Positions 41,670 to 55,672 of a stretch of DNA of 55,672 bases are shown in pieces (the first letter of the stretch is position 1; the number at the start of each line of letters is the position of its first letter). Source of the stretch: an uncultured Lachnospiraceae bacterium (GTDB lineage Bacteria; Bacillota; Clostridia; Lachnospirales; Lachnospiraceae); assembly GCA_902796355.1 (NCBI GenBank), contig CADBOU010000101.1, forward strand, positions 1 through 55,672, written 5' to 3'. The notes beneath the pieces are model-generated. The model had not been told where the DNA came from, made no database searches, and saw only the letters and a list, made by a program, of their open reading frames with translations. The position numbers were made by a program, and so were the translations under genes.

Positions 41670-42767
41670 ATGTATGATGTAAGTTTGTTCAGCAAGATTG
41701 CAGAGGCGATCAAAAATGGCCGCGTGTGGGTTGCCACATGTGTCGAGAATGAGTCAGTCAAGTGGAAAATTGTTTTCACGGCGGACGAGATACTGCACAG
41801 AGAACCGGAAGATTTAAATGTCGATGAAGCCTGTTCTCTGAGCGCAGCTCCCTATGATTCTATTCTTGACTTATGGCGTACACGGTTTAATGCGGAAACA
41901 CTGGTTGACGGTGAGCGTCTGATTCTTCTGGAATCCTTTGGCCAGAGAAAACATCTGGTGATCTGCGGAGCAGGCCATGTGGCATTGAATCTGATCAAAA
42001 TGGCTAAGCTGGTGGGATTCAATGTCACATCACTTGAGGACAGACTTGTTTTTGCCAATATGGCGACTGAAGCCGGCGCAGATGAAGTAATCTGCGATGC
42101 CTTTGATCAGGGCCTTCAAAAAGTAGTGTCCACCGAGGATACCTGTTTTGTGATTATGACACGCGGGCATCGCTTTGATGAAATGTGCCTCCGTGAGATT
42201 TTCAAGAAACAGTATGCTTATATCGGGATGATGGGCAGCAAGGGACGTGCAATCAATGTAAGGCGTGACATGGAAAAAGAAGGCATTGATAAAGACACGT
42301 TAGCTGCTCTGCACGCGCCTATCGGGATGGAAATTGGCGCTCAGACACCATCGGAGATTGCGGTCAGCGTTTTGGGCGAATTGATCCATTTTCTCCGTTC
42401 TAATGACCGCGCTATCGACGATGGGATTGAGAGTGTTATTCAGGGTGCTGTGGATCCAACACAATACGGGGTTGGTAAAGTGATGGCTACGATTGTCTCA
42501 AAGAGAGGAGCTACGCCGCGTACAGTGGGGACTAAAATGATGGTTCTGGGGACCGGCCGTATTATCGGTACAATCGGCGGCGGATGTGCGGAAGCAGATG
42601 TCATCACACAGGCCAGAGCCATGATCCAGGAAGAACGCGAAAAAGGGCCTGATGCCGTTGAGCCGCGTATCGTGAACGTCGATCTGACAGGGGCACAGGG
42701 CTTTGATGAAGATGCGATGCACTGCGGCGGAATCCAGGATGTTCTGCTCGAGCTGGTTGCAGACTGA
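41670..42767 (+). CDS. xdhC: XdhC/CoxI-family molybdenum-cofactor insertion/maturation protein
   Basis: Central Rossmann-like LVICGAGHVALNLIKMAKLVGFNV. A canonical XdhC_CoxI-type segment sits at the C-terminus (ATIVSKRGATPRTVGTKMMV...GTIGGGCAEADV...HCGGIQDVLLE). Confidence 0.8.
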   Translation: MYDVSLFSKIAEAIKNGRVWVATCVENESVKWKIVFTADEILHREPEDLNVDEACSLSAAPYDSILDLWRTRFNAETLVDGERLILLESFGQRKHLVICGAGHVALNLIKMAKLVGFNVTSLEDRLVFANMATEAGADEVICDAFDQGLQKVVSTEDTCFVIMTRGHRFDEMCLREIFKKQYAYIGMMGSKGRAINVRRDMEKEGIDKDTLAALHAPIGMEIGAQTPSEIAVSVLGELIHFLRSNDRAIDDGIESVIQGAVDPTQYGVGKVMATIVSKRGATPRTVGTKMMVLGTGRIIGTIGGGCAEADVITQARAMIQEEREKGPDAVEPRIVNVDLTGAQGFDEDAMHCGGIQDVLLELVAD

Positions 42768-42800
42768 TAATTGCAAATATGTAGGCAACATGGTATCATA

Positions 42801-42836
42801 ATGCCAGCGGATTTTTTAAGATTCGTTGGCATTTTT
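42801..42836 (+). terminator. rho-independent terminator after xdhC
   Basis: ATGCCAGCG-14 nt loop-CGTTGGCAT followed by TTTT. Confidence 0.55.
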
Positions 42837-42865
42837 GTGCAGAGAATCAGAAAGGAATGATACCT

Positions 42866-43561
42866 ATGAAGCGCGTGCTTCTTAAACTGTCCGGAGAGGC
42901 TTTGGCTGGTCCGAAGGGGACTGGATTCGACGAAGATACATGTCTGGGTGTTGGCCGTCAGGTTAAAGAGCTTGTTGATGAGGGAATGCAGATTGCTGTC
43001 GTCACAGGCGGCGGTAATTTCTGGCGCGGCAGACAGAGTCCGGAGATGGATCGCAGCAGCGCTGACTCCATCGGTATGCTTGCAACTGTGATGAACTGTG
43101 TTTATGTATCAGACGTATTCAGAAGAGTCGGTCTGAAAACCAGTATTTATACTCCGTTTGCATGCGGATCTTTCACCAAAGTATATAACAAGGATGCGGC
43201 GATAGCTTCACTTGAGCATGGTGAAGTTGTGTTCTTTGCCGGCGGAACAGGCCATCCGTTCTTTTCAACTGATACCGGAGCGGTCTTGCGTGCGCTGGAG
43301 ATTGACGCGGACGCCATGCTCCTGGCTAAAAATATCGATGGCGTTTATGACAGTGATCCAAAAGAAAATCCTGATGCTAAACGGTTTGATGAGATATCCA
43401 TCGATAAAGTCATTGATCAAAACCTGAAAGTCATTGATATGACAGCTTCCATCATGTGTCGAGACAACAAGATGCCGCTTCTTATCTTTGCTCTGCAGGA
43501 AGAAAACTCGATTGTCAGAACTGCCGGCGGGGAAAAAACCGGAACAGTCGTAACAGTATAA
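42866..43561 (+). CDS. pyrH: UMP kinase
   Basis: MKRVLLKLSGEAL and GGGNFWRG. ATG 42866 lies 9 nt after AAAGGA and is preferred over 42857. Confidence 0.9.
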   Translation: MKRVLLKLSGEALAGPKGTGFDEDTCLGVGRQVKELVDEGMQIAVVTGGGNFWRGRQSPEMDRSSADSIGMLATVMNCVYVSDVFRRVGLKTSIYTPFACGSFTKVYNKDAAIASLEHGEVVFFAGGTGHPFFSTDTGAVLRALEIDADAMLLAKNIDGVYDSDPKENPDAKRFDEISIDKVIDQNLKVIDMTASIMCRDNKMPLLIFALQEENSIVRTAGGEKTGTVVTV

Positions 43562-43586
43562 CAGCGATTTTGCGAGGAGGGTTATT

Positions 43587-44138
43587 ATGCACGAATCATT
43601 GGAAAAATGCGAATCAAAGATGACTAAAACTTTATCAAAACTGGATGATGATCTCGGCGCAATTCGTGCCGGTCGAGCTAACCCGCACGTACTTGATCAT
43701 ATTCGTGTAGACTATTACGGTTCTCCAACACCGATTCAGCAGACTGCGAACATATCCGTTCCCGAGCCGCGTATTATTCAGATTGCTCCGTGGGATAAAA
43801 GCATGGTTCCCGAGATTAATAAAGCGATTCAGGCGTCAGATCTGGGCATCAACCCGACTGTCGACGGGAATAATATCCGTCTGATTTTCCCTGAGCTGAC
43901 TGAGGAGAGACGTAAAGACCTCGTGAAAGATGTTAAAAAGAAAGGCGAAGATGCCAAAGTTGCTTTGCGCAATATTCGCCGCGAAGGAAATGATATCATT
44001 AAGAAGCTTAAGGGATCGGATTTCTCTGAAGATACGATCAGCGATATGCTGGATGATCTGCAGAAGATGATTGAGAAGTATTCGAAAAAAGTTGATGAGG
44101 CTGTTGACGTTAAATCCAAAGAGGTTATGACAGTTTAA
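43587..44138 (+). CDS. frr: Ribosome recycling factor
   Basis: 183 aa. Typical LDDDLGAIRAGRANPHVLD and LTEERRKDLVK motifs. Confidence 0.95.
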   Translation: MHESLEKCESKMTKTLSKLDDDLGAIRAGRANPHVLDHIRVDYYGSPTPIQQTANISVPEPRIIQIAPWDKSMVPEINKAIQASDLGINPTVDGNNIRLIFPELTEERRKDLVKDVKKKGEDAKVALRNIRREGNDIIKKLKGSDFSEDTISDMLDDLQKMIEKYSKKVDEAVDVKSKEVMTV

Positions 44139-44148
44139 AGATCATCGC

Positions 44149-44177
44149 AACGGGTGTGCCCCGCACACCCGTTTTTT
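44149..44177 (+). terminator. rho-independent terminator after frr
   Basis: AACGGGTGTGC-ccc-GCACACCCGTT followed by TTTT. Confidence 0.75.
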
Positions 44178-44199
44178 AAACAAAAAGGGGGGAGAAATC

Positions 44200-44928
44200 A
44201 TGAAAGTGCCGCGCCATGTCGCAATCATTCTGGATGGCAACGGACGCTGGGCAAAAGCAAAGGGGATGCCGCGCACATACGGTCACGTCCAGGGAGCAAA
44301 GAATGTTGAGACGATTTGCCGTGCCGCGCACAATCTTGGAATTGAATATCTTACCATGTATGCCTTTTCAACCGAAAACTGGAACAGACCGGCTGAAGAG
44401 GTCTCTGCTTTAATGCGTCTTTTACGAAACTACCTGAAGACATGTCTTTCCACTGCAAAAAAGAATAATATGCGCGTCCGCGTCATCGGTGATACGAGCC
44501 GGCTGGATGATGATATTCGCGAGAGAATCAATCAGGTTGAAGACGCATCCCGCCATTACGATGGACTTAATTTTACCATCGCAATCAATTACGGGAGCCG
44601 TGACGAAATCAAAAGAGGAGTTATTCGGCTTTGTAAGGATGTATTAAGCGGTCAAGTGAAGCCTGATGATGTTGATGAGACCATGATTTCCGGGTATCTC
44701 GACACATATGATTTACCTGATCCGGATTTGATGATTCGTACAAGCGGAGAACAGAGATTATCAAATTACCTGCTCTGGCAGCTTGCATATGCTGAATTCT
44801 ATTTTACTGATGTACCCTGGCCTGCATTTACAGAAAACGATCTGATAGCAGCTGTTCAAGCTTTCAACGAACGAGACAGGCGCTACGGCGGTGTCAATGT
44901 GTCAGAAGGGGGAGAAGAGAATGTTTAA
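44200..44928 (+). CDS. uppS: Undecaprenyl diphosphate synthase
   Basis: HVAIILDGNGRWA and IRTSGEQRLSNYLLWQLAYAEF. Confidence 0.95.
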   Translation: MKVPRHVAIILDGNGRWAKAKGMPRTYGHVQGAKNVETICRAAHNLGIEYLTMYAFSTENWNRPAEEVSALMRLLRNYLKTCLSTAKKNNMRVRVIGDTSRLDDDIRERINQVEDASRHYDGLNFTIAINYGSRDEIKRGVIRLCKDVLSGQVKPDDVDETMISGYLDTYDLPDPDLMIRTSGEQRLSNYLLWQLAYAEFYFTDVPWPAFTENDLIAAVQAFNERDRRYGGVNVSEGGEENV

Positions 44929-45724
44929 AACACGTCTTATCAGCGGCATCGTTTTAGTGATCGCTGCTCTGATTTTATTTTTAACTGGAGGAAAACTGCT
45001 TTGGGCTGCCATGATGCTGATCAGCGCAGTTGGTCTTTATGAGTTCTATAAAGCAGTGAGATTGTTCTGGGATAAGATTGCAGTGATCGGATTTTTGGCG
45101 ATGGTTGCATATTATGTTTTGCTGCTGTTTATTGATGCAGACAGAGCACTGGGGCTGATGATCTCAGGACTTATCATATTGCTCCTTGTCTTCCTTGTTG
45201 TCACTTATCCTTCTTATCAGATATCTCAATTAGGAGTTGTCGTACTGGGAGTCATATATATTCCCGTGATGCTCTCCTTTATTTATCTGACCAGAAGTCT
45301 GCCTCACGGCAAGTGCCTTGTCTGGTTAATTTTCCTTGCTGCCTGGGGCAGTGATACACTTGCCTACTGTACCGGAATGCTGATTGGAAAACATAAAATG
45401 ACACCCCGTCTTTCTCCGAAGAAGACAATAGAAGGAGGCATCGGCGGCGTTCTCGGTGCAGCTCTTCTCGGTGTCATTTATGCAGCGATCATGCATGCCG
45501 CATCTCCGGCAACCGGTGCGCACATCGGTTGGTATGCACTGATTTGTGCAGTAGGAGCAGTTATTTCCATGTTTGGTGATCTGGCTGCATCAGCGATCAA
45601 GCGCTCATTTGATATCAAGGATTTCGGTAATCTGATTCCCGGTCATGGCGGAATTCTGGATCGTTTTGATTCGATCATTATTACCGCACCGGTCATCTAT
45701 TTTCTTTGTCTGTATTTACTGTAG
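44921..45724 (+). CDS. cdsA: Phosphatidate cytidylyltransferase
   Basis: Polytopic membrane protein with the C-terminal signature SAIKRSFDIKDFGNLIPGHGGILDRFDS. ATG 44921 overlaps the uppS stop. Confidence 0.9.
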   Translation: MFKTRLISGIVLVIAALILFLTGGKLLWAAMMLISAVGLYEFYKAVRLFWDKIAVIGFLAMVAYYVLLLFIDADRALGLMISGLIILLLVFLVVTYPSYQISQLGVVVLGVIYIPVMLSFIYLTRSLPHGKCLVWLIFLAAWGSDTLAYCTGMLIGKHKMTPRLSPKKTIEGGIGGVLGAALLGVIYAAIMHAASPATGAHIGWYALICAVGAVISMFGDLAASAIKRSFDIKDFGNLIPGHGGILDRFDSIIITAPVIYFLCLYLL

Positions 45725-45745
45725 TTTTCCATGAGGGAGTCAGGT

Positions 45746-46894
45746 ATGAAACGAATTGCAGTTTTCGGATCGACCGGTTCAATAGGCACACAAACGCTGG
45801 ATGTTATCAGCAGGGAACCGGATCGTTTTAGTGCAGAGATCCTGGTTGCGGGAAAAAATGATGCATTAATGGAGCGCCAGATCAGACAGTTTCATCCGCG
45901 CAAAGCAGTGATGGGTGATCCGGAAGCGGCGGTCTCTCTTAAGGTGAGAGTGGCCGATCTTGATGTAGAAATCGGATCTGGTATGGATGCGGTTGCAGAG
46001 GCAGCTTCTGATCAGGATATTGATCTTGTACTTATGGCGCTTGTCGGCATGATCGGAATCAGGCCGACAGTGGCGGCGCTTACCGCCGGACATAAACTGG
46101 CTCTGGCCAATAAGGAAACGTTGGTATGCGCCGGGCATTTAATCATGAATCTATCCCGGGACAAGGGGATCTCTATTCTGCCGGTTGACTCTGAACACTC
46201 AGCGATTTTTCAGTGCATCGGAGAACATCCGGCATCTTCGATAGAACAAATCCTTCTGACAGCATCAGGAGGTCCGTTTTTTGGGAAAGATACGACGTTC
46301 TTAAAAACTGCCAGGCTTGAGCAGGCCTTGAATCATCCAAACTGGTCGATGGGGCAGAAAGTGACGATTGATTCCGCCAGTATGGTTAATAAGGGGCTGG
46401 AAGTGATCGAAGCAAAATGGTTGTTTGATACTCCAGTTGAACGTATCAAAGTTCTGGTGCAAAGAGAAAGCTATGTGCACTCGATGGTCCAGTTTGTTGA
46501 TGGATCTGTGTTGGCTCAGATAGCGCCTCCGGATATGCGCGTTCCGATTTCTTATGCGCTGGGATATCCTGAGCATTTTAAGCTTCCGGTCAATCCGCTC
46601 GATTTTGCGAAGATTGGCGGGATTCAGTTTTTTGAGCCTGATCTCGATACATTCCGCGGACTTGCTCTCGGATATGAGGCAGGAAGAGTCGGCGGCAGTC
46701 TACCGGCTGTCTTCAATGCAGCAAATGAAAAAGCTGTTCAGATGTATGCCGTAGGTAAAATAGGATTCTTAACTATATATGAGATCATTGAAGATTGTAT
46801 GACTCATCATCATGTCATTGAAAGCCCTTCCTTACAGCAAATCTTTGACTGTGAACAGGAGACATATGAGCGGATTGAAAGCAGGTGGGAATAG
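45746..46894 (+). CDS. dxr: 1-deoxy-D-xylulose 5-phosphate reductoisomerase
   Basis: MKRIAVFGSTGSIGTQTLDV, LANKETLV, DSEHSAIFQC. ATG 45746 sits behind GAGGGAG. Confidence 0.95.
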   Translation: MKRIAVFGSTGSIGTQTLDVISREPDRFSAEILVAGKNDALMERQIRQFHPRKAVMGDPEAAVSLKVRVADLDVEIGSGMDAVAEAASDQDIDLVLMALVGMIGIRPTVAALTAGHKLALANKETLVCAGHLIMNLSRDKGISILPVDSEHSAIFQCIGEHPASSIEQILLTASGGPFFGKDTTFLKTARLEQALNHPNWSMGQKVTIDSASMVNKGLEVIEAKWLFDTPVERIKVLVQRESYVHSMVQFVDGSVLAQIAPPDMRVPISYALGYPEHFKLPVNPLDFAKIGGIQFFEPDLDTFRGLALGYEAGRVGGSLPAVFNAANEKAVQMYAVGKIGFLTIYEIIEDCMTHHHVIESPSLQQIFDCEQETYERIESRWE

Positions 46895-47934
46895 TCTTGG
46901 GTATATTGTTAGCGATTATCATTTTTGGCTTTATCGTAGCCTTTCATGAATTCGGCCATTTCATTCTGGCTAAGGTGAATCATATCCAGGTGTTTGATTT
47001 TTCTGTTGGATTTGGCCCGTCGATCCTGCATAAGAAGATCGGCGAGACAACGTACAACCTTCGGATCATTCCTCTTGGCGGTATGTGCCAGATGGGTGAA
47101 GATAATGCTGAAGGGGAACAGGGAAACTTTAATGAAAAGCCTGTGTGGGCCCGCATGCTGGTCATATTGGCCGGTCCCTTTTTTAATTTTATACTGGCTT
47201 TTTTGCTGGCTGTTATTCTTGTTGGAATGACAGGGTATGACAAACCTGTCATCGGTAATACCATGCAAGGGTATCCGGCACAAAAGGCCGGGTTAAAAAA
47301 AGGAGATGAAGTCATTTCCATCAATGGAAGAAAGATTCACCTGTGGCGGGAGATTTCTCTTAATAATGCGATGCATCCCGGTGAGAAGGTTCATATGGTC
47401 TACCGGAGAGACGGGAAAGAACGGAGTGTTGAGATCACACCTCAGAAACAGGAAGATGGATCTTATCTGCTCGGTATCTCGCCGACAGAATCCTTTTACA
47501 CAAAGGCCAGCCCTGTCACGGCAATGCAATATGGATTATATGAAGTTACCTATAGTGTCAGATCAACACTTGATGGTCTGAAGCTTTTAATCTACCGCAA
47601 AATCGGGATTGAGCAACTATCCGGTCCGGTCGGTATAGGAAGCATTGTCAATGAATCATACAACGAAAGCAAAGATTACGGCATTAAGGCAGTCGTGATG
47701 ACAATGCTTTCGCTTGCCATATTGCTTTCGGCCAATCTGGGAGTGATGAACTTACTCCCTATCCCTGCACTGGATGGAGGCCGATTCCTGTTTTTACTGA
47801 TTGAGGCTGTCCGCCGCAAGAGGCTTCCGCCTGAAAAAGAAGGGTTTGTGCATTTGGTCGGCATGGGTCTGTTGTTGATACTCATGGCTTTTGTGATGTA
47901 TAATGATATAACTAAGCTCATTTCAGGAAGTTAA
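46885..47934 (+). CDS. rseP: RIP site-2 metalloprotease RseP/RasP (M50 family)
   Basis: HEFGHF zinc motif, a PDZ segment (GYPAQKAGLKKGDEVISING) and NLLPIPALDGG. GTG 46885 overlaps the dxr stop; the exact start is uncertain. Confidence 0.85.
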   Translation: MGIVLGILLAIIIFGFIVAFHEFGHFILAKVNHIQVFDFSVGFGPSILHKKIGETTYNLRIIPLGGMCQMGEDNAEGEQGNFNEKPVWARMLVILAGPFFNFILAFLLAVILVGMTGYDKPVIGNTMQGYPAQKAGLKKGDEVISINGRKIHLWREISLNNAMHPGEKVHMVYRRDGKERSVEITPQKQEDGSYLLGISPTESFYTKASPVTAMQYGLYEVTYSVRSTLDGLKLLIYRKIGIEQLSGPVGIGSIVNESYNESKDYGIKAVVMTMLSLAILLSANLGVMNLLPIPALDGGRFLFLLIEAVRRKRLPPEKEGFVHLVGMGLLLILMAFVMYNDITKLISGS

Positions 47935-47948
47935 GAAAGTGGTGCCAT

Positions 47949-50900
47949 TTGAAAACCAAGATTAATAAATATTCAAAGGGTGATTATTCTTCGGCTAAAC
48001 CGCAGGTTGTCTTCTCTGAGACTAATATTCAGATGACGATCGGGGAGGGCGAGTCTTATCGCGGATCATTTGTGATTAAGAGCACCAATGAGATGAATGT
48101 CCGCGGTCTGATCTATGCATCGTCGAGACGTATCAAAATCGACAAAACCGGATTTGACGGTCTGGAGAATAAGATTACTTATACATTTGACGGACGGGGA
48201 CTTTCGCCGGGAGATATTGAAATGGGAACATTCGATATCGTCTGTACAGGGGGAGAGTACTCGCTTCATTTTGCTGCTTTTGTAGAAAAACCGTTCATTA
48301 TGACCGCTTATGGCAAAGTTCAGAGTCTGAAGAACTTTGCACACCTGGCCATGATTGATTACATGGAAGCACACAGGCTGTTTAAATCTCATGATTTCTT
48401 TGAGATTCTTAAGTATGAAGATGAGCGTGTTTCATCGCTCTACAAAAACATGCGCACCTGGTCTCTCAGCGAGGAGGGCATGGAGGAATTTCTTGTTGGG
48501 ACCAAGCAGAAAGAGCGTGTAATGCTCTCGCTGCCCAAGACCAGAAAATCAATTGATTTTCTGAGCGAAACCCGTAAAACGGTGATGGTTGTTCAAAAAA
48601 ACACATGGGGTTATCTGCCGGTCCATGTCGAGGTTGACGGAGATTTCATTTATCTTGACAAATCCCGTTTCTCCACTGATGATTTTGTCGGCAACAGCTT
48701 TACACTGGAATTTGTAATTGACAGAGACAGACTGCATGACGGACGGAATTATGCCAGAATCATCCTGACAACACCATACCAGACATTAAACTATGATGTT
48801 GATGTGCTGGAAGGCCACCATTATTCCGGTCAAAGTGCACAGATCCATTCGGTTTACGGCAGAATCATTTCCGAATACCTCCCTTGTGTCTGCGGGAAAA
48901 AAGGCATATCAGAATGGGTTGAAGAGGCGCTTGAACTGATTGAGCAGCTCCATGCTCATGACAGCGAAGACCGCTTTGTGGATCTTGTACAGGCACATAT
49001 ACTCCTGCGCGGCAACCGGAAAGAAGAAGCCAAGTGGGTACTTGATAACTTTGAGTATAATCGCATTATGCTCACTGCTCAGCCTGAATTGGCTGCATAT
49101 TATCTGTTCCTGTCTGCATTGTTATCCGGTGATCAGAGGCAGATGAGACGCATTTCTGAAGAGCTGGAGAGGCTGGAGCTGCGCAATGATGATTCATGGA
49201 TGATCGTCTGTATGCTGGCACTTCTTTCTCCTTCTTACCGTGAATACCGTTCCAGGCTGGAATATCTGAAGATGAAGCATATGCGTCATGGCTTCCACTC
49301 CTTGCTGTTTTATACAAACTGCTATATTTGCTACCAGGAAAACACAGGGCTGCTTACGTCTATCGGTGCTTTCGAACTGCATGTGCTTGAATTTGCATGC
49401 AAGAGAGGGATGTTTACAGCTGAGCTGGCGGCTCAACTTGCTTCCCTGATTCCGCAAGTCAGGAGGTTTGATGAGCGGCTGTACAGGATCTTATGTCATG
49501 TTTATGATATGTTCCCCTCTGATCATGTCCTGGCAGCTATCTGTACGCTTCTGATAAAAAAGAATGAACCGGACAGCGAAGATTTTAAGTGGTATCAGAT
49601 GGCAGTTGATCAGAATCTGAATATTCCAAAACTGTATGAGTACTATATGCTCACCATATCAGAGGATCAGGTCAAGGAATCACTTCCGAGATCCATCTAT
49701 CTGTATTTTATGCATGGGGACATGCTTGACTATAAAAAGAAAGCGCTTCTGTACTCCAACATTCTGACTTATGAGGAAGAAAGCTCCCAGCTTTTTGCTG
49801 ATTATCTTAATCAGATGGAGACGTTTGCATTTAATCAATTATTGATGCGGCGTATTAATGACAGACTGCGTATCATCTATAAACGCTTCTGCAATGAAGA
49901 AATGATGACAGTTGATCAGATTCAGGCCTTAAACGATATCTGCCATGCCTACTCGATCAGTACTTCAGTTTCTAACATGCGCAATGTGCTGGTGCTCGAT
50001 GGCCAGGGAAATATCATAGAACGGGTTCCATACACTGGTCCTGATACGGTCATCTTTGTGCATGATTCTACCTCGCGGGTTATCTGGGAGTCCGAGGAAG
50101 GACGATTCTATGCAGATTCTATTCCGTATGAAACAAAGCGCCTGTTCTACGAACCGCACTTTATTGAGTTTTGCAAACGTTACATGGATACGACACACCA
50201 GAGTGTTCCGGTGACTATAGAAGAAGATGTGCTGATTCAAACTGTTCGCGATCAGGGGTTTGCATCTGCCGATCCTGAATTTGTTTTTCAGGCATGTTCA
50301 CGCCGGATATCTGACGGCGATGGTGAGGAAGATCAGTTCCTGCTTGATCTGGCCTTCCATCTGTTTGAGCAGGGATACTATAACAAGACGACGCTTTCGT
50401 ATCTGAATGCCTATTACTATGGCAGCTCATACAATATGAAAAAGCTGTGGCGCAAAGCACGCAAATATGATCTTCCGACTGAAGAACTTGCAGAGCGCAT
50501 TATGACTCAGATGCTCTTTTCTGATCAGTTGATCAGTGAAAAAGAGGTGTTTGAAAACTATGTCAGCAAAGGCGGGTATTTCCGCCTAAGACAGGCCTAT
50601 TACGCATATGCATCTCATCTGTATTTTCTTTATGACCGCATCACAGATGATGATGTGTTTGAGTTGATAGCCGACGAATTTCTGCGTGATGAGAATCTCC
50701 CTGATATCTGCAAACTGGCGCTGATCCGTTTTTACAGCACGCATCAGGCTTCAGCGGAGATAAAAAAGATTCTTAAACAATTCATGCAGGATTTTTGCGA
50801 AAAAAGAACAATATTTCCATTTTTTCTTCAGTATCCCGACTCCTGGAAAAATGAGATGTGCTTAGAGGACAAGACGGTTGTTCAGTATCAATCTAAGTTT

Positions 50901-51251
50901 GGCGGTAAAGTAAAAATTCATTACCGTGTCATTAAACCGGGACTTCAGAAGAAAGAGTTAAAATTCCAGTCTGAAGTGTTGATTCCTGCATACGGAACAA
51001 TTTATGTGAAAGTATTTGTTCTCTTTTTCCGTGAGACACTGGAATATTATTTTGAAGAATTTTCAGAAGAGAAAAGCTCGAACACACCGCGCCAGCAGTA
51101 TCGCATTGACAAGAAAGAAGGCGCTTATGGCCGGTATCAGCGGCTTAATAGATTGATTTCACTGCCGGCGGGCAGCCGTGTGCGCACTCAGGAAGCCGCA
51201 TCCTATGATCAGGAACTGAAACTGGCTGAAGAAATATTCTTGTATTATTGA
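47949..51251 (+). CDS. Large uncharacterised protein: N-terminal Ig-like beta-sandwich, long helical-repeat body, beta-rich C-terminus
   Basis: 1100-aa uninterrupted ORF 14 nt after the rseP stop. TTG start; the first ATG lies 84 nt further in. No signal peptide, TM helix or catalytic motif was recognised. I vaguely recall a Clostridia-restricted DUF family (DUF5717?) but this is unverified. Confidence 0.7.
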   Translation: MKTKINKYSKGDYSSAKPQVVFSETNIQMTIGEGESYRGSFVIKSTNEMNVRGLIYASSRRIKIDKTGFDGLENKITYTFDGRGLSPGDIEMGTFDIVCTGGEYSLHFAAFVEKPFIMTAYGKVQSLKNFAHLAMIDYMEAHRLFKSHDFFEILKYEDERVSSLYKNMRTWSLSEEGMEEFLVGTKQKERVMLSLPKTRKSIDFLSETRKTVMVVQKNTWGYLPVHVEVDGDFIYLDKSRFSTDDFVGNSFTLEFVIDRDRLHDGRNYARIILTTPYQTLNYDVDVLEGHHYSGQSAQIHSVYGRIISEYLPCVCGKKGISEWVEEALELIEQLHAHDSEDRFVDLVQAHILLRGNRKEEAKWVLDNFEYNRIMLTAQPELAAYYLFLSALLSGDQRQMRRISEELERLELRNDDSWMIVCMLALLSPSYREYRSRLEYLKMKHMRHGFHSLLFYTNCYICYQENTGLLTSIGAFELHVLEFACKRGMFTAELAAQLASLIPQVRRFDERLYRILCHVYDMFPSDHVLAAICTLLIKKNEPDSEDFKWYQMAVDQNLNIPKLYEYYMLTISEDQVKESLPRSIYLYFMHGDMLDYKKKALLYSNILTYEEESSQLFADYLNQMETFAFNQLLMRRINDRLRIIYKRFCNEEMMTVDQIQALNDICHAYSISTSVSNMRNVLVLDGQGNIIERVPYTGPDTVIFVHDSTSRVIWESEEGRFYADSIPYETKRLFYEPHFIEFCKRYMDTTHQSVPVTIEEDVLIQTVRDQGFASADPEFVFQACSRRISDGDGEEDQFLLDLAFHLFEQGYYNKTTLSYLNAYYYGSSYNMKKLWRKARKYDLPTEELAERIMTQMLFSDQLISEKEVFENYVSKGGYFRLRQAYYAYASHLYFLYDRITDDDVFELIADEFLRDENLPDICKLALIRFYSTHQASAEIKKILKQFMQDFCEKRTIFPFFLQYPDSWKNEMCLEDKTVVQYQSKFGGKVKIHYRVIKPGLQKKELKFQSEVLIPAYGTIYVKVFVLFFRETLEYYFEEFSEEKSSNTPRQQYRIDKKEGAYGRYQRLNRLISLPAGSRVRTQEAASYDQELKLAEEIFLYY

Positions 51252-51274
51252 TTTCTGTTTTAAGGGGACAGACA

Positions 51275-52564
51275 ATGGATAAGATGACCGAAAATGTTAT
51301 AGGATTTGACTTAAATGATCAGTATTGTCAGATCAGTTATTGCCATGAGGGAATGGAAGAGCCCGAGACAAAAGAAGTCGTTGGAGATAATGATAAAATT
51401 CCGCTCGCTATCGGTACATACCGCAACCGCTGGACATATGGTCAGGAGGCTATTCGTCATGGCCTGGGTGAGAATGGCGTTTTTTGCGACAGGCTGTTTT
51501 CACGGGCGCTGGCTGGCGAAACAGTAATGTTCGGCGATAAAGAAGTGAGTGCAGCCAGTCTTCTTGAAAAGTATATTGAACTGTCTCTGAGCACATACGA
51601 CCCTGTCACATATATCGTTTTTTCGGTGCCGGCATTGTCGGAAGATATTGTCAAGCTCCTCAAAATGATTGGTGAACGGATCGGTCTTGAAAAGAATCAT
51701 ACCATCGTCCAGGATTACAAAGAAAGCTTCTGTCACTTTATGTTTGATCAGCCCAAGGAGCTTTGGCAATATGAGGCTGCCTTATTTTACTGTGACAAAG
51801 AGCAAGTCTGTGCATATATGATGAAACGGATTGATACAGGATATAATCGTTACGGATCTTCTTTTGTGATGGTAGAAGAGGTTTCACACGCTCTGATGAG
51901 TGAGCTTCATGTGACATTCCCGGTTATGAATGTGGATTCTGCAATGGAAGCGGATGTGCGCTTTCTGCATTGGGTTAACGGCGTTTTTGACAGACGGCGC
52001 ATATCTTCTGTGTTTTTGACGGGAGAAGGGTTCGAGACGAACTGGTATCCAGAGACATTGAAGGTCATGTGTAATGGCAGACGTGTTTTTATCGGCAATA
52101 ATCTCTACAGTAAAGGTGCCTGCTATGAAGCGTTCAGACGTCAGATAGGGCGCAGCTCAGGTCCGGTGTATCTCGATGAATCAAAGATGACTGACCGGAT
52201 ATGCATGAAAATCAGACGCGGTGATAAAGAAGAGATGTATCCGATTGTTTCGTGGGGTGAACACTGGTATGAGTCAGACTGCACCTACGAAGTGCTGCTT
52301 GATAACAATGATCCGATTGAATTGTATCAGAATTCCCTGGCAACAGGAGAAGAAAAGACGATCACTGTCAACCTTGACGGACTTCCAAACCGTAAGAACT
52401 ATTCACTGCGACTGGTTATCCAGGCCGTTTTTCTGGATGAGAACCGTTGCCGAATCACGTTTACTGATGCCGGTTTCGGTGAGATTTTCCCGGAGACAGA
52501 TTTTTCGAAAGACGTGACAGTCATGTTAGGAGGAAGCAATGAGCAGTTTAATACTTTGTCATAA
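51275..52564 (+). CDS. Hsp70-shaped protein with degenerate nucleotide-binding loops (pseudo-chaperone candidate)
   Basis: ATG 51275 lies 7 nt after [21 protein letters not shown] aligns to DnaK [40 protein letters not shown] aligns to [35 protein letters not shown] aligns to VILVGGQTR. The C-terminal [36 protein letters not shown] resembles the SBD-beta segment (F.L.GIPPAPRG.PQIEVTFDID.NG). Confidence 0.7.
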   Translation: [429 protein letters not shown]

Positions 52565-53306
52565 ACAGAAGGCGACTCAGCCTTATAAGCTTCCTCATAT
52601 ACGATATAAGATTTATACGATTGAGGAGATGGCTTATGTCATTTTTGACAATCTGTATCTTCTTGATCACACATTGATGAGCGAATCGCTGTGCGAATGG
52701 CTAGAGGGGGAACTGGGTCTGTTTTCGTTAGCAGACAGTCTGCGGGAGCAGATTGCCAAACGCGTCTCACTTGAAGATTTTATTTTGTATTTCCTCGAGC
52801 ACACAGGGATTTATTCTACTGCGGAAATATCTGGAATCAAAGGCGTTCTGGCGGCACTCGAAGGACAGGAAGAAGTTGAAAAACAAAAGAAAAAGGCCGA
52901 TGATCTGCTGTCCATGAATGAATATGAAAATGCAATATTGGCATATAATTCGATCCTGGCAGCCACCCGCACAGATGCAGTTGATGCATCGTTTTATGGA
53001 AAGGTGTATGCCTGCCTTGGCGCAGCTTACGGCCGTCTGTTTCTCTATAAGGAAGCGGCAAAAGCCTACGCAGCCGCTTATCAGATCTGTGATGATTTTG
53101 AAATGATCAAAGCATACTTGTATGCATGCCGTCAATACATGCCGGCTGAAGAGTATCACCTGTTATTGTCAGAAAATGATTTGTTCAAAGTGGCCGATAA
53201 AGAAAACAGCCAAAAGATACATGAGTTTGAGGATTCTCTGCACAGAGAGCCGGATGACAGTCTGATTGAAGAGTGGAAATCTGCTTATCGCGAGATTCCG
53301 ATTTAA
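52539..53306 (+). CDS. Uncharacterised TPR-like helical protein
   Basis: 255 aa. ATG 52539 lies 5 nt after AGGAGG and 26 nt inside the preceding ORF. TPR-like helices YENAILAYNSILAA ... GKVYACLGAAYGRLFLYKEAAKAYAAAYQI. Confidence 0.65.
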   Translation: MSSLILCHKQKATQPYKLPHIRYKIYTIEEMAYVIFDNLYLLDHTLMSESLCEWLEGELGLFSLADSLREQIAKRVSLEDFILYFLEHTGIYSTAEISGIKGVLAALEGQEEVEKQKKKADDLLSMNEYENAILAYNSILAATRTDAVDASFYGKVYACLGAAYGRLFLYKEAAKAYAAAYQICDDFEMIKAYLYACRQYMPAEEYHLLLSENDLFKVADKENSQKIHEFEDSLHREPDDSLIEEWKSAYREIPI

Positions 53307-53316
53307 GGAGAGAAAA

Positions 53317-54753
53317 ATGTCTACAGACCGATATACAAGCCCGTTATCTCAAAGATATGCCAGCCGTGATATGCAGTATATCTTTTCCGAAGATAAAAAG
53401 TTTACTACCTGGAGAAAATTATGGATTGCTCTTGCTGAAATAGAAAAGGACCTTGGGCTGGATATTACTGATGAACAGATTCAAGAACTGAAAAAGCACG
53501 CCAATGATATCAATTATCAAGAAGCACGGGAGCGAGAGAAAATTACACGCCATGATGTGATGTCTCATGTGTATGCATACGGGCTTCAGTGTCCCAAAGC
53601 AAAGGGAATTATCCATCTGGGAGCAACATCGTGTTATGTCGGAGATAATACCGATGTGATTATCATGAAGGATGCGCTCACATTACTGCGCAGGAAACTG
53701 CTGTGTGTGATTGCTAATCTTGCTTCTTTTGCTGAAGAATACCGCTCGCTGCCAACTCTTGGATACACACATTTCCAGCCTGCACAGCCGACAACAGTCG
53801 GCAAACGCGCAACACTTTGGATTCAGGATCTGATGACTGACTATGAGTATCTGAATGATGTGCGCGACGGGTTAAAGCTTCTTGGAAGCAAAGGAACAAC
53901 CGGTACACAAGCATCGTTCCTGGAACTGTTTGACGGAGATCTTGAAAAAGTAAGAGCGCTGGATCCTATGTTGGCTGATAAATTCGGCTTCTCTGGTTGT
54001 GTTGATGTGTCAGGACAGACTTATTCGAGAAAAACTGATCTCATGGTGCTGTCTGTTTTGGAACAGATTGCTGTTACGGCATCAAAGTTCTCCGGGGATA
54101 TCAGATTACTTCAGAATCTGAAAGAAGTCGAAGAGCCGTTTGAAAAAGGTCAGATTGGATCTTCTGCCATGGCCTATAAACGTAATCCCATGCGCAGTGA
54201 AAGAATCGGATCTCTGTCACGGTTTGTCATCAGTAATACTATGAATCCGGCTATGACTGCCGCTACGCAGTGGTTTGAGAGAACCCTTGATGACTCAGCG
54301 AACAGACGGTTATCTATTGCCGAGGGATTTCTTGCAACAGACGGTATCCTGGAATTGATGATTAACGTAACCAGCGGCCTTGTTGTTTACCCCAAAGTGG
54401 TCGAAGCACATCTTAAGAGAGAACTTCCGTTCATGGCCACTGAGACAATTTTGATGGATGCAGTCAAACGGGGCGGAGACCGTCAGGTTCTTCATGAAAA
54501 AATCCGTACTGCATCGATGGAAGCTGCAGCCAAAGTAAAACAGGAAGGGCTTGACAATGATTTGATGGAAAGACTCATGGCTGATCCTGCCTTTTCGCTT
54601 GATGAAGACGGAGTTGCGCATGCTATGGATCCTTCCCGTTATATCGGTTGTGCCAGCAGCCAGACAGAGCATTATCTGAATGATGTTGTTTACCCTGTAC
54701 TCAATGAAAATAAAGAATTGCTCGAAGATATCACAGCACAGATTAATGTATAA
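53317..54753 (+). CDS. purB: Adenylosuccinate lyase
   Basis: MSTDRYTSPLSQRYAS N-terminus, GYTHFQPAQPTTVGKR, signature SSAMAYKRNPMRSE. ATG 53317 sits behind AAGGAGAG. The track start at 53266 lies inside the preceding gene. Confidence 0.95.
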   Translation: MSTDRYTSPLSQRYASRDMQYIFSEDKKFTTWRKLWIALAEIEKDLGLDITDEQIQELKKHANDINYQEAREREKITRHDVMSHVYAYGLQCPKAKGIIHLGATSCYVGDNTDVIIMKDALTLLRRKLLCVIANLASFAEEYRSLPTLGYTHFQPAQPTTVGKRATLWIQDLMTDYEYLNDVRDGLKLLGSKGTTGTQASFLELFDGDLEKVRALDPMLADKFGFSGCVDVSGQTYSRKTDLMVLSVLEQIAVTASKFSGDIRLLQNLKEVEEPFEKGQIGSSAMAYKRNPMRSERIGSLSRFVISNTMNPAMTAATQWFERTLDDSANRRLSIAEGFLATDGILELMINVTSGLVVYPKVVEAHLKRELPFMATETILMDAVKRGGDRQVLHEKIRTASMEAAAKVKQEGLDNDLMERLMADPAFSLDEDGVAHAMDPSRYIGCASSQTEHYLNDVVYPVLNENKELLEDITAQINV

Positions 54754-54864
54754 ATCTGTATCTGTCTAACGAATCATATCAGCACATATCAGGACATTCC
54801 TTCACCGGCTTAAATCCCTGTCTTTCAGAGGATGTATGTGAAGGGATGTCTCTTTGTGAGTTCG

Positions 54865-54893
54865 TTGACTTTAAAGGTGTTATTGAATATAAT
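54865..54893 (+). promoter_or_regulatory. Putative sigma-A promoter of the NAD(P)H-hydrate dehydratase gene
   Basis: TTGACT (54865-54870), 17 nt, TATAAT (54888-54893). Confidence 0.5.
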
Positions 54894-54934
54894 TAATCTG
54901 TATATATATGCATAATAGACAGGAAAACAAACAT

Positions 54935-55672
54935 ATGTATTTTGAAATTCAACCTGAAAAAATGCTTCCGAAACGGAGTCCCGACAGTCACAAAGGGACG
55001 TACGGAAGAGTTCTTTTAATTGCGGGATCAAAGGGTATGGCCGGTGCAGCGTATCTGGCCGGTATGACTGCTTACAGATCCGGCTGCGGGCTTGTGGAAA
55101 TATTCACCCATGAGGACAATCGAATTATTTTGCAGGAGCTGCTGCCGGAAGCGATTATGACTACATATCGGGACGAGCTGGCAGATGAGTTGTCAGACAA
55201 ACTGGGTCGTTCGCTTGATAAAGCAGATTCGGTTGCCATCGGATGCGGTATAGGGTGCGATGAGACATCGTCACTTCTCTTGTCACGCACTTGCCGGTTT
55301 GCTGCTGATTCGCCTGTACCGATTACCATTGATGCAGATGCCATTACGTTGCTGGGACGCCGCGCTGATCTCATGTCATGTATCAGCGGACGCAGTGTTG
55401 TTCTGACTCCTCATCCGAAGGAAATGTCCGTTTTGATCCACACTTCGGTTGAAGAGGTGGAAGAGGACCGCGAGGTCACTGTTGACCGTTTTGTCAGGGC
55501 TGCTCAGGTTACTTGTCTGCTCAAAGGACACCGGACCTTAGTGGGAGCGCCCCAGAAAGATGTTTACATTAATATGACCGGAAACGACGGTATGGCCTGT
55601 GGAGGCTCAGGAGATGTTCTGACCGGTTTGATCACCGGTCTGACGGCACAGGGGCTGACACCTTATGACGCC
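54935..55672 (+). CDS. nnrD: ADP-dependent NAD(P)H-hydrate dehydratase (YjeF C-terminal / Nnr family), 3' end beyond the window
   Basis: This open frame is absent from the ORF track because it has no stop inside the window. It translates as MYFEIQPEKMLPKRSPDSHKGTYGRVLLIAGSKGMAGAAYLAG ... LTPHPKE ... GGSGDVLTGLITG, which are classic carbohydrate-kinase-type Nnr motifs. The weak SD makes the exact start uncertain. Confidence 0.85.
   Translation, partial: MYFEIQPEKMLPKRSPDSHKGTYGRVLLIAGSKGMAGAAYLAGMTAYRSGCGLVEIFTHEDNRIILQELLPEAIMTTYRDELADELSDKLGRSLDKADSVAIGCGIGCDETSSLLLSRTCRFAADSPVPITIDADAITLLGRRADLMSCISGRSVVLTPHPKEMSVLIHTSVEEVEEDREVTVDRFVRAAQVTCLLKGHRTLVGAPQKDVYINMTGNDGMACGGSGDVLTGLITGLTAQGLTPYDA

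Follow-up and report, generated by a model that had tools for sequence, protein, structure and literature searches.

The window, the whole 55,672-nt stretch of DNA analysed here, comes from a contig of an uncultured Lachnospiraceae bacterium. It contains three tightly packed genes, ORF1, ORF2 and ORF3, located on the same strand between rseP and purB (Table 1); the flanking genes are pyrH, frr, uppS, cdsA, dxr, rseP (M50 and PDZ domains) and purB. The stop codon of rseP (47934) is followed by a 14-nt gap before ORF1, ORF3 begins 26 nt inside ORF2, and 10 nt separate ORF3 from the purB ATG (53317), the purB Shine-Dalgarno (AAGGAGAG) overlapping the ORF3 stop. A scan for terminator-like sites found none at the rseP/ORF1 or ORF3/purB junctions, and one downstream of frr (44154-44166). 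The original prediction, made from the sequence alone, had described the same layout: three packed ORFs, the coordinates of ORF1 and ORF3, the TTG start, the 14-nt gap, the overlapping ORF3 start behind AGGAGG, the position of the purB Shine-Dalgarno and a last terminator after frr. The start of ORF2 is most likely the ATG at 51275, preceded by AAGGGGA, since the protein read from it is 100% identical to a 429-aa database entry; the TTG at 51248, called mechanically, is a less likely start. The three ORFs are genes; their hundreds of homologues and strong Pfam matches argue against chance ORFs. As anticipated, neither a signal-like N-terminus nor a transmembrane-grade hydrophobic segment was found in any of the three products (maximum 19-residue Kyte-Doolittle values of at most 1.63, versus about 3.1 for the rseP and cdsA products).

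Table 1. Features of the three-gene unit, given as positions in the window
Feature	Position	Strand	Remarks
Candidate σA-type promoter	47875..47904	+	TTGATA-18-TATAAT (11/12 matches); inside rseP 3' end, 44 nt upstream of ORF1
ORF1	47949..51251	+	TTG start; 1100 aa; DUF5717 protein, putative multi-domain scaffold
First Ig-like β-sandwich, ASH/MSP/PapD type (ORF1 aa 20-124)	48006..48320	+	AF2 strands, Foldseek
Inter-Ig segment (ORF1 aa 121-190)	48309..48518	+	High conservation, low model confidence; candidate partner-binding region
Second Ig-like β-sandwich (ORF1 aa 199-288)	48543..48812	+	AF2 model, Foldseek
TPR-like α-solenoid 1 (ORF1 aa 294-665)	48828..49943	+	~20 helices in model
Small β domain (ORF1 aa 667-731)	49947..50141	+	AF2 model
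α-Solenoid 2 (ORF1 aa 736-969)	50154..50855	+	AF2 model; within Pfam DUF5717 C-terminal
C-terminal β-sandwich (aa 975-1052) and terminal helices (aa 1064-1099) (ORF1 aa 975-1099)	50871..51245	+	AF2 model
ORF2	51275..52564	+	429 aa; DUF5716 protein, predicted lid-less, motif-degenerate Hsp70 fold
Shine-Dalgarno of ORF3	52528..52533	+	AGGAGG; inside ORF2 coding sequence, encodes Gly-Gly
ORF3	52539..53306	+	255 aa; putative adaptor; family-specific N-domain and 2-3 TPR motifs

Among 90 related loci, every one not interrupted by a contig end had the three genes in identical order and on one strand, and so did all 80 genome loci whose contigs extend far enough, as the co-inheritance proposed earlier would lead one to expect. 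ORF1, ORF2 and ORF3 were present in 81, 81 and 78 loci, respectively, and were the sole universally shared genes, the next commonest being purB (63 loci). The trio persisted even at about 25% ORF1 identity, in loci L085, L086 and L090, each with a different genomic context. The candidate promoter upstream of ORF1 was one of the two top-scoring promoter-like sites (11/12) in the scanned region, 42700-55672. The two closest relatives of the window (L001 and L002) carry the same promoter-like site at the same distance from ORF1; since this stretch is coding sequence, its conservation there is not independent evidence, and its role as the ORF1 promoter in the window is an inference. Read-through from rseP into ORF1 is possible in the window, though expression does not require it. 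Upstream of the operon, 58 of 72 loci had a σ70-type site with a score of 10/12 or more, compared with 3.6% of random stretches, and 53 of those 58 carried a TG extension. The best reading of these sites is that the operon would be constitutively expressed from a housekeeping (σA-type) promoter.

ORF1 is a clear member of Pfam DUF5717 (PF18984 and PF18983). DUF5717_N scored 687 bits and the DUF5717 C-terminal family, which spans aa 795-1097, scored 284 bits, far over the cutoff of 25 for each. Conservation at its N-terminus begins with residue 2, and the TTG start is kept in 63 of 73 loci. In an AF2 model (pLDDT 80.5; the pTM of 0.43 makes the inter-domain arrangement unreliable), a pair of Ig sandwiches of ASH/PapD type was accompanied by two TPR-like solenoids and two other β domains; no enzyme fold was seen. 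The N-terminal Ig/PapD sandwich, the helical repeats and the β-rich C-terminus foreseen from the sequence were all there, but the protein proved more modular, with a second Ig sandwich and with the helical part split into two solenoids by a β domain. Foldseek matched ORF1 only to ASH/Ig and TPR scaffolds: tandem ASH-type Ig domains of ciliary central-pair proteins (7sqc and 9ijj; E 4e-8), the SPD-2 domain of CEP192 (9fh8), 2qsv from P. gingivalis, titin Ig domains and, for solenoid 1, the TPR scaffolds Naa15 (5nnp, 2.5e-5) and IFT70 (4uzy, 8.5e-5). Solenoid 1 also gave weak Sel1 and BepA-TPR profile matches. The likeness to such scaffolds, hydin-type ciliary proteins included (E 4e-8 to 1e-4), is at the fold level only (5-12% identity), and ORF1 differs from them in being cytoplasmic, with no signal peptide. 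The modules of the modelled ORF1, Ig/ASH sandwiches and TPR-like solenoids, are all of a protein-interaction type; we know of no protein that joins such modules in this order. The inter-Ig segment has many invariant residues (alignment A3) and low model confidence (pLDDT <50 for aa 118-189). Across 16 orthologues reaching down to about 20-26% identity, 11 of the 48 invariant positions fall in aa 133-188, which make up 5% of the length.

ORF2 is a clear member of Pfam DUF5716 (PF18980; DUF5716_C, 317.6 bits versus a cutoff of 34.7). Its AF2 model (pLDDT 81.7, pTM 0.83) had an NBD-like domain (aa 1 to ~295) and an SBDβ-like domain (aa ~297-420), the chain ending directly after the β domain with no helical lid; a secondary-structure map showed subdomain IIB to be much shortened. 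Foldseek returned 345 PDB matches at E ≤1e-3, the top 50 being all Hsp70/Hsp110 two-domain structures, with DnaK, BiP and Hsc70 at E 1e-17 to 1e-12 (DnaK 7kru, 1.2e-17); lid-truncated DnaK, BiP and Ssz1 were among the top matches. The IGxDL strand at the N-terminus and, following the NBD, a linker-like YLD motif recall the IGIDLG and LLLD of DnaK. The model thereby shows an Hsp70 two-domain fold, NBD plus β substrate-binding domain, although identity to Hsp70 structures is 9-14% and no Pfam HSP70 match was found. The catalytic residues were mapped by a low-probability hhalign alignment (47-54%) to a DnaK sequence, aided by fold similarity; in this mapping T11/T12, K70, E171 and G196-T199 of DnaK had no conserved equivalent in the ORF2 family, and D194 aligned to a Tyr in the window ORF2. 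The alignment shows ORF2 to have lost, as far as can be read from it, most canonical catalytic and phosphate-loop residues, in agreement with the earlier description of an Hsp70-shaped protein with degenerate phosphate loops. Of the DnaK residues mapped in this way, only D8 has a conserved equivalent, an acidic residue (Asp12 in ORF2) kept in 64 of 65 family sequences. G250 and G252 of the adenosine motif, plus F253, are conserved as well. Since these residues stay conserved, ORF2 may bind nucleotide without hydrolysing it, and may even hydrolyse it.

None of the 400 homologues of ORF3 was assigned any Pfam family. Its family-specific N-domain (aa 1-105) matched nothing in profile comparisons, and TPR motifs occupy aa ~110-200. 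The TPR_2 match was below threshold for the window ORF3 (E=0.012) and over the cutoff of 27 for the L086 orthologue (32.7 bits); 8 of 16 members were matched. The family profile matched consensus TPR proteins at E 1e-10 to 1e-22 and Cut9 at 6e-6, which bears out the TPR-like helices noted in the sequence. The overlap with ORF2 was kept in 73 of 75 loci, being of 26 nt in 55 and 29 nt in 18. Conservation of the ORF2 tail is seen in close relatives and vanishes in a broad alignment, and is explained by the overlap with the Shine-Dalgarno and start of ORF3. In several lineages ORF3 is joined to the C-terminus of ORF2. All nine representatives of 687-737 aa among the 149 DUF5716 relatives listed were such fusions, forming nine independent sequence clusters (hhalign probability 99.6% and 99.3%; ORF3-profile E-values 1e-20 to 1e-39). 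They occur on several independent contigs of up to 482 kb, where the fusion gene directly follows a DUF5717 gene and there is no separate third gene. As comparative evidence, the fusions argue strongly for a physical partnership of ORF2 and ORF3. Fusion of ORF1 to either protein was never found, so that synteny is the single argument for its physical membership.

Profile searches thus gave essentially what had been forecast, DUF families for ORF1 and ORF2 and none for ORF3. DUF5717 and DUF5716 are catalogue entries only, and NCBI names the relatives accordingly ('DUF5717 family protein', 'DUF5716 family protein'). Database and literature searches found no function, structure or paper on either family, and no description of the three-gene unit, of its Hsp70 relationship or of the ORF2-ORF3 fusions, in line with the earlier statement that no characterised system has this composition. 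The trio is a real operon conserved across Lachnospiraceae and not yet characterised.

Universal synteny and the ORF2-ORF3 fusions indicate that the three proteins very probably form one cytoplasmic complex; together with the conserved overlap they lend strong indirect support to the scaffold, pseudo-chaperone and TPR-adaptor assembly first suggested. Its most favoured form, to which we give a probability of about 0.5, is a constitutively expressed, soluble complex in which ORF2 would not be an ATP-cycling foldase and would serve as a structural 'pseudo-Hsp70' subunit. The SBDβ-like domain of ORF2 and the TPR groove of ORF3 would clamp an extended segment of a partner, for which the conserved, unstructured inter-Ig segment of ORF1 (aa ~121-190) might be the best candidate, a purely conjectural choice. 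Other proteins would be recruited or held by the resulting stable assembly of scaffold and adaptor, whose subunit ratios would be set by two features, the weak, conserved TTG start of ORF1 and the translational coupling between ORF2 and ORF3. The closest functional analogy is Ssz1; this atypical, non-hydrolysing Hsp70 pairs with Zuotin as a permanent subunit of the ribosome-associated complex of eukaryotes. In Ssz1 the SBD is truncated and ATP hydrolysis is dispensable; a segment of the partner stays permanently bound to the SBDβ as a pseudo-substrate, which is the mechanism proposed here. Ssz1 structures were among the top ORF2 matches (7x3k_B, 6e-15; 5mb9; 6sr6). However, Ssz1 is eukaryotic and ribosome-bound, has a J-protein partner and still binds ATP; the resemblance suggests a possible way of working, and Ssz1 is not the closest relative of ORF2.

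A tentative alternative is an active, specialised ATP-driven Hsp70 system, in which ORF2 would still be an ATPase, binding and hydrolysing ATP at a non-canonical site, with ORF3 as a TPR co-chaperone. A dedicated client would be folded, assembled or remodelled; this client could be ORF1 itself or something recruited by it. The NBD-SBDβ fold, the conserved D8-equivalent, G250, G252 and F253, and the more Hsp70-like DLG that divergent members retain in the phosphate-1 loop are consistent with this. Service of Hsp70/Hsp90 by TPR co-chaperones is an established arrangement, and ORF3, with its 2-3 TPR motifs, is linked to an Hsp70-fold protein by gene arrangement and, in some lineages, by covalent fusion; the ORF3 profile weakly matches Hop/Sti1 (STI1), Tah1, SGTA and Tom70 (E 1e-3 to 1e-2). 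Unlike the usual partners of such co-chaperones, ORF2 has no EEVD-type tail. Against it, equivalents of the phosphate-2 GGG-T loop, K70 and E171 are not conserved anywhere in the ORF2 family, ORF2 lacks the lid and has a shortened IIB, and, unlike DnaK-DnaJ-GrpE, the system shows no J-protein or GrpE partner: no HPD (J-domain) motif was found in ORF1, ORF2 or ORF3, and no GrpE-like gene within or adjoining the operon. An actin-like cytoskeletal or positioning system, in which ORF2 would polymerise and ORF1 and ORF3, as adaptors, would tether cargo or give the cell its shape, is improbable. The ORF2 fold does belong to the actin/Hsp70 (ASKHA) superfamily, ORF1 would make a large scaffold partner composed of interaction modules, and the trio is conserved across Lachnospiraceae and apparently constitutively expressed; yet actin, MreB, ParM and FtsA were absent from the top 50 structural matches, the C-terminal domain matches the Hsp70 SBDβ, and the nucleotide motifs needed for filament dynamics are degenerate.

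The 14- and 10-nt gaps without terminator-like sites, and a same-strand purB no more than 10 kb downstream in 63 of 81 loci (immediately adjoining in 17), would suit a role in envelope-lipid synthesis and regulated intramembrane proteolysis (uppS-cdsA-dxr-rseP) or in purine synthesis, within one co-transcribed operon as first suggested. Such a role is rather less probable still: rseP is the immediate upstream neighbour in no loci but the window, L001 and L002, the upstream gene varies elsewhere (a divergent CobD/HisC-like aminotransferase gene in 30 loci), and deep-branch loci have valS, gltX or Rrf2/adhE downstream in place of purB. The variable neighbours and the trio's own σA-type promoter in most genomes mean that no cell-envelope link is supported, and the proteins have no transmembrane segments. 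The ideas that the module was inserted into the uppS-cdsA-dxr-rseP block and is co-regulated with envelope-lipid genes were therefore not borne out.

A mobile anti-phage defence or conflict system, suggested by a multi-gene cassette with a degenerate NTPase-fold protein and TPR repeats and by homologues in four GenBank records labelled 'Bacteriophage sp.', is already largely refuted: those of the records that were inspected are contigs of bacteria, with genes such as valS and rarA, the trio had no PADLOC or plasmid match and a relative on only 1 of 2.9 million viral contigs, its GC content is like that of its flanks, and it lies among housekeeping genes behind what appears to be a strong constitutive promoter. 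All named members of the three-gene unit are Lachnospiraceae. Across loci, the trio and the neighbouring housekeeping genes lose sequence identity in parallel, the pattern that vertical descent would give, and genome comparison is best explained by an autonomous, vertically inherited operon widespread in Lachnospiraceae.

The three genes form a compact block between rseP and purB, and the evidence supports their being an autonomous, vertically inherited operon, widespread in Lachnospiraceae, that encodes a soluble complex. Coordinates, gaps and a scan of the junctions confirmed the three packed same-strand ORFs described in the original prediction. ORF1 follows the rseP stop codon (47934) after 14 nt, and the Shine-Dalgarno sequence of purB (ATG at 53317) overlaps the stop codon of ORF3. 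The ATG at 51275 is most likely the start of ORF2, since it is preceded by AAGGGGA and a 100% identical database entry is also 429 aa long. No terminator-like site was found by the scan at the rseP/ORF1 or ORF3/purB junctions; the same scan detected a terminator-like hairpin 3′ of frr. Pfam models identified the flanking genes as pyrH, frr, uppS, cdsA, dxr, rseP (M50 plus PDZ) and purB. GC content was even across the trio and its flanks, and no hydrophobic segment of transmembrane grade was present in ORF1, ORF2 or ORF3. Directly upstream of pyrH, at 41670-42767 (+), lies a gene of the XdhC/CoxI family (molybdenum-cofactor insertion accessory protein).

Features of the three-gene block and of related loci. 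Nucleotide positions refer to the window unless a locus from another genome or record (L-number) is named; aa positions refer to the protein, and the DnaK equivalences come from an approximate mapping.
Feature	Position	Strand	Remarks
ORF1	47949-51251	+	TTG start; 1100 aa
ORF2	51275-52564	+	ATG start; 429 aa
ORF3	52539-53306	+	255 aa; start 26 nt within ORF2, preceded by AGGAGG
Candidate promoter	47875-47904		11/12; inside rseP 3′ end, 44 nt before ORF1
ORF1 Ig-like sandwich 1	aa 20-124		structure model
ORF1 Ig-like sandwich 2	aa 199-288		structure model
ORF1 solenoid 1	aa 294-665		structure model
ORF1 small β domain	aa 667-731		structure model
ORF1 solenoid 2	aa 736-969		structure model
ORF1 β-sandwich	aa 975-1052		structure model; terminal helices follow
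DnaK IGIDLGTTNS	ORF2 IGFDLNDQYC		strand conserved in family alignment (65 sequences)
DnaK D8	ORF2 D12		acidic in 64/65
DnaK T11/T12	ORF2 D15/Q16		no conserved counterpart (65 sequences)
DnaK K70	ORF2 D72		no conserved counterpart (65 sequences)
DnaK E171	ORF2 Q146		Gln in 35/65, acidic in none
DnaK D194	ORF2 Y172		acidic in 40/65
DnaK G196-T199	ORF2 D174-Q177		variable, no conserved counterpart (65 sequences)
CobD/HisC-like PLP enzyme	L081 8802-9899	-	
CobD/HisC-like PLP enzyme	L087 1079-2176	-	
CobD/HisC-like PLP enzyme	L089 3064-4182	-	

ORF2 belongs to the DUF5716 family (PF18980, DUF5716_C; 317.6 bits over aa 123-422, cutoff 34.7), and the Hsp70 match expected for it was obtained by structure but not from Pfam. 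In the structure model (pLDDT 81.7, pTM 0.83), an actin-like nucleotide-binding domain is followed by a β-sandwich substrate-binding domain, the two-domain arrangement of Hsp70. Compared with the PDB by Foldseek, the model had 345 matches (E ≤ 1e-3), and the first 50 were without exception two-domain Hsp70 or Hsp110 proteins (DnaK at 1e-17, then BiP, Hsc70, Ssz1 and Sse1) with identities of 9–14%. As for the sequence, no Pfam HSP70 match was found at E ≤ 1, and the family profile reached the DnaK sequences of the PDB at E ~0.8 only. The residue mapping onto DnaK is approximate (hhalign probability just 47–54% against E. coli DnaK); according to it, neither the Hsp70 ATPase residues nor the Gly-rich phosphate loops are conserved in the ORF2 family, the D8 equivalent excepted. 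One rival explanation is that ORF2 retains ATPase activity at a non-canonical site; the retained acidic position speaks for it, the unconserved phosphate loops against it. The α-helical lid (SBDα) is absent: ORF2 ends at aa 429, ~10 residues past its last β-strand, and the model contains no C-terminal helices. The segment matching subdomain IIB of the nucleotide-binding domain is short. An actin-like polymer is a further rival; the actin-like fold of the N-terminal domain speaks for it, the two-domain Hsp70/Hsp110 proteins heading the Foldseek matches against it. No HPD motif (J-domain co-chaperone) was found in ORF1, ORF2 or ORF3; the trio gave no Pfam match to DnaJ or GrpE, and neither gene is among its conserved neighbours.

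The TPR nature proposed for ORF3 was upheld by its family profile, although the DUF-type match expected did not appear and the window protein scored below threshold for TPR_2 (16.1 bits, cutoff 27). The orthologue in L086, a human-faeces record, scored 32.7 bits against the same cutoff, and TPR_2 matched 8 of the 16 family members. A broad profile that included fused versions of ORF3 matched consensus TPR proteins at E values of 1e-10 to 1e-22 and Cut9 at 6e-6; matches of the ORF3 profile to the TPRs of Hsp70/Hsp90 co-chaperones (Tah1, TOM70, STI1, SGTA) were weaker. ORF3 can be classed as a TPR repeat protein through its orthologues and this profile; its residues 1-105 matched nothing. An EEVD-like C-terminal tail on ORF2, considered as a ligand of the ORF3 TPRs, was rejected because it is lost in the broad alignment and because, among close relatives, the conserved stretch falls on the overlapping Shine-Dalgarno sequence and start of ORF3 (GGAGG reads as Gly-Gly).

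An exhaustive profile search with DUF5716 yielded 1,443 clusters (50% identity) at E ≤ 1e-3, 573 of them at E ≤ 1e-30. Among the 149 relatives listed, nine were proteins of 687–737 aa, and all nine consisted of DUF5716 and a C-terminal, full ORF3-like region. These ORF2-ORF3 fusions were found on several independent contigs of up to 482 kb. The fusion gene lies directly downstream of DUF5717 and the separate third gene is absent, which shows that the system also exists in a two-gene form. Such fusions constitute classic Rosetta-stone evidence, suggesting that ORF2 and ORF3 act together physically.

The DUF assignment expected for ORF1 proved to be DUF5717, both gathering thresholds (cutoffs 25) being exceeded by the N-terminal (PF18984, 687.4 bits) and C-terminal (PF18983, 284.2 bits) models. 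The DUF5717_N model aligned over positions 1-752 of 875 only. Between the small β domain and solenoid 2, deep-branch orthologues (1173–1207 aa) have a ~100-aa segment that is missing from window ORF1; the gap falls at ~50190-50220 (aa ~749-757). Foldseek comparison of the ORF1 model (pLDDT 80.5, pTM 0.43) returned, at fold level only, tandem ASH/MSP-type Ig domains at E values of 4e-8 to 1e-5, including ciliary central-pair ASH-domain proteins (4e-8), the CEP192 SPD-2 domain and P. gingivalis 2qsv. It also returned the TPR scaffolds Naa15 and IFT70, and there was no enzyme fold among the matches. The segment between the two Ig-like sandwiches (aa 118-189) was modelled with pLDDT <50; of the 48 residues that do not vary among orthologues as distant as ~20–26% identity, it nevertheless holds 11. 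Sequence searches of the PDB with ORF1 and ORF2, both single-sequence and profile, gave insignificant matches only, and an NCBIfam scan of the trio yielded nothing useful.

In a scan of one genome per species, a DUF5716 relative was present in at least 590 species. Nearly all of the best 80 loci belonged to Lachnospiraceae-type genomes (Dorea, Faecalimonas, Faecalicatena, Mediterraneibacter, Sporofaciens, Hespellia, Claveliimonas and [Ruminococcus] torques among them), and Lachnospiraceae were the source of every named family member, divergent ones included. The check on relatives bore out the anticipated synteny: gene order and strand were kept in all of the best 80 loci wherever the contig permits. 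ORF1, ORF2 and ORF3 (81, 81 and 78 loci) were the sole genes common to all, followed by purB (63), and ORF2 and ORF3 overlapped by 26 nt in 55 loci and by 29 nt in 18. Besides the window, rseP is directly upstream of the trio only in L001 and L002, the window's closest relatives. The supposed insertion into the rseP block, with co-regulation with envelope genes, is hence a lineage-specific arrangement and unsupported as a functional link. [Clostridium] hylemonae and Claveliimonas bilis share another order: a divergent CobD/HisC-like aminotransferase precedes the trio, which is followed by an amino-acid ABC transporter and then purC-purF-purB. A role connected with the neighbouring envelope or purine genes, frequent as purB is, is poorly supported given this variable context. 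Of all neighbours, the divergent CobD/HisC-like PLP enzyme recurs most widely (30 of 81 loci, distant lineages included); it scores 268–287 bits, just below the NCBIfam CobD cutoff of 290.55. The window trio has no such enzyme adjacent to it, the best match in the window (9384-10094) being 26% identical. Being recurrent yet not universal, and giving no mechanistic insight, the enzyme was dropped as a functional clue.

A σ70-type site (at least 10/12) was found upstream of ORF1 in 58 of 72 loci, as compared with 3.6% of random stretches in the same scan. The typical site reads TTGCCA-N17-18-TGCTATAAT, its conserved, σA-type form being TTGCCA-N17-18-TGnTATAAT; the TG extension is present in 53 loci, and the median distance to the ORF1 start codon is 51 nt. 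The promoter is thus of housekeeping type, and sporulation-specific expression is not supported, the conserved promoter being σA-type. The window's candidate promoter, which shares the top score with one other promoter-like site of the 13-kb region scanned and is present in L001 and L002 too, is assigned by inference only, since it lies in the rseP coding sequence. The TTG start of ORF1 (window 47949-47951) is kept in 63 of 73 loci, the others having ATG (nine) or GTG (one). The retention of so rare a start codon suggests that the scaffold is selected to be translated at a low or regulated level compared with its partners. A possible operator, the perfect palindrome CTATAAT-N2-4-ATTATAG, overlaps the -10 box in 15 of 72 loci (e.g. 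L081 at ~9970-9990, L004, L011 and L021); it is followed by a conserved ~50-nt leader (…AAAATGCAACGAAAGAAGCAGGTG…), at which Rfam gave no match in L081 or L004. In [Clostridium] hylemonae, the called DUF5717 start (1106 aa; L081/L082 10001-10031) falls inside the conserved promoter and leader; the start is more likely the conserved TTG ~30 nt downstream, behind AAGCAGGTG. In Dorea acetigenes, the glycine-GGAnGA riboswitch aptamer matched below threshold (62 bits, gathering 110; E 1e-10) at a position 3′ of the pur genes (L004 19864-20057, +).

The three-protein complex of the original prediction gained strength. Fusions, overlap and synteny strongly support ORF2 and ORF3 working as a pair, and it is universal synteny alone that suggests ORF1 membership. 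Most likely, ORF2 would not cycle but act as a 'pseudo-Hsp70', its β domain and the TPR groove of ORF3 jointly clamping an extended partner segment. The best candidate for this segment is ORF1 aa ~121-190, and the outcome would be a stable scaffold-adaptor platform. The closest functional analogy is Ssz1 of the eukaryotic ribosome-associated complex, which is also among the structural matches of ORF2. In its fullest form, this reading posits a new type of bacterial machine, in which a catalytically dead, lid-less Hsp70 is a permanent structural subunit, coupled to a TPR protein covalently or translationally and docked on an 1100-aa Ig/TPR scaffold. Such a machine would parallel, in a prokaryote, 'pseudo-Hsp70' assemblies like the ribosome-associated complex, serving an undescribed, Lachnospiraceae-specific housekeeping process; we consider it tentative, with a probability of about 0.3. 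Since catalogued DUF families and known folds (Hsp70, TPR, ASH/Ig) account for its components, the trio is best rated as an Hsp70-derived module with a TPR partner.

Literature searches, full-text ones included (DUF5716/DUF5717, the Pfam accessions, Hsp70-like or atypical Hsp70 plus TPR themes), found no relevant paper; the ORF1 and ORF2 families are therefore catalogued, with no study of them found. Lachnospiraceae rank with the most abundant gut bacteria of humans and animals, and in most loci the operon lies behind a near-consensus, housekeeping-type promoter. Its architecture is unusual. From what were two DUF entries and a protein outside any family, there is now a concrete, clear and testable structure-function hypothesis: an Hsp70 fold without lid or ATPase motifs, a fusion-linked TPR partner, and a scaffold with a conserved, unstructured candidate docking segment. 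If confirmed, this would be a rare bacterial case of an Hsp70 paralogue turned into a structural subunit that does not cycle, and a handle on the lineage-specific cell biology of hard-to-study bacteria.

ORF1 homologues (~25% identity) also occur in four GenBank records that bear the label 'UNVERIFIED: Bacteriophage sp.'. The two examined, L085 (MT835486.1 1-20652) and L086 (MT835988.1), both from human faeces, each hold a complete trio in yet another genomic context, with ORF3 homology at an hhalign probability of 99.7%. The presence of valS, rarA/mgsA, MoxR-VWA and polysaccharide deacetylase genes makes both look like contigs of bacteria (Lachnospiraceae-type) rather than phage genomes, and a phage origin of the trio was rejected. 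Of 2.9 million IMG/VR viral contigs, one had a relative, there as the full trio, and no plasmid match was found. A defence system is poorly supported, these mobile-element tests being negative and the PADLOC models giving no match to the trio at E ≤ 1. Upstream of the trio in L086 (253-4876) lies a MoxR (AAA_5), DUF5682 and VWA_CoxE triad, another conserved module of unassigned function.
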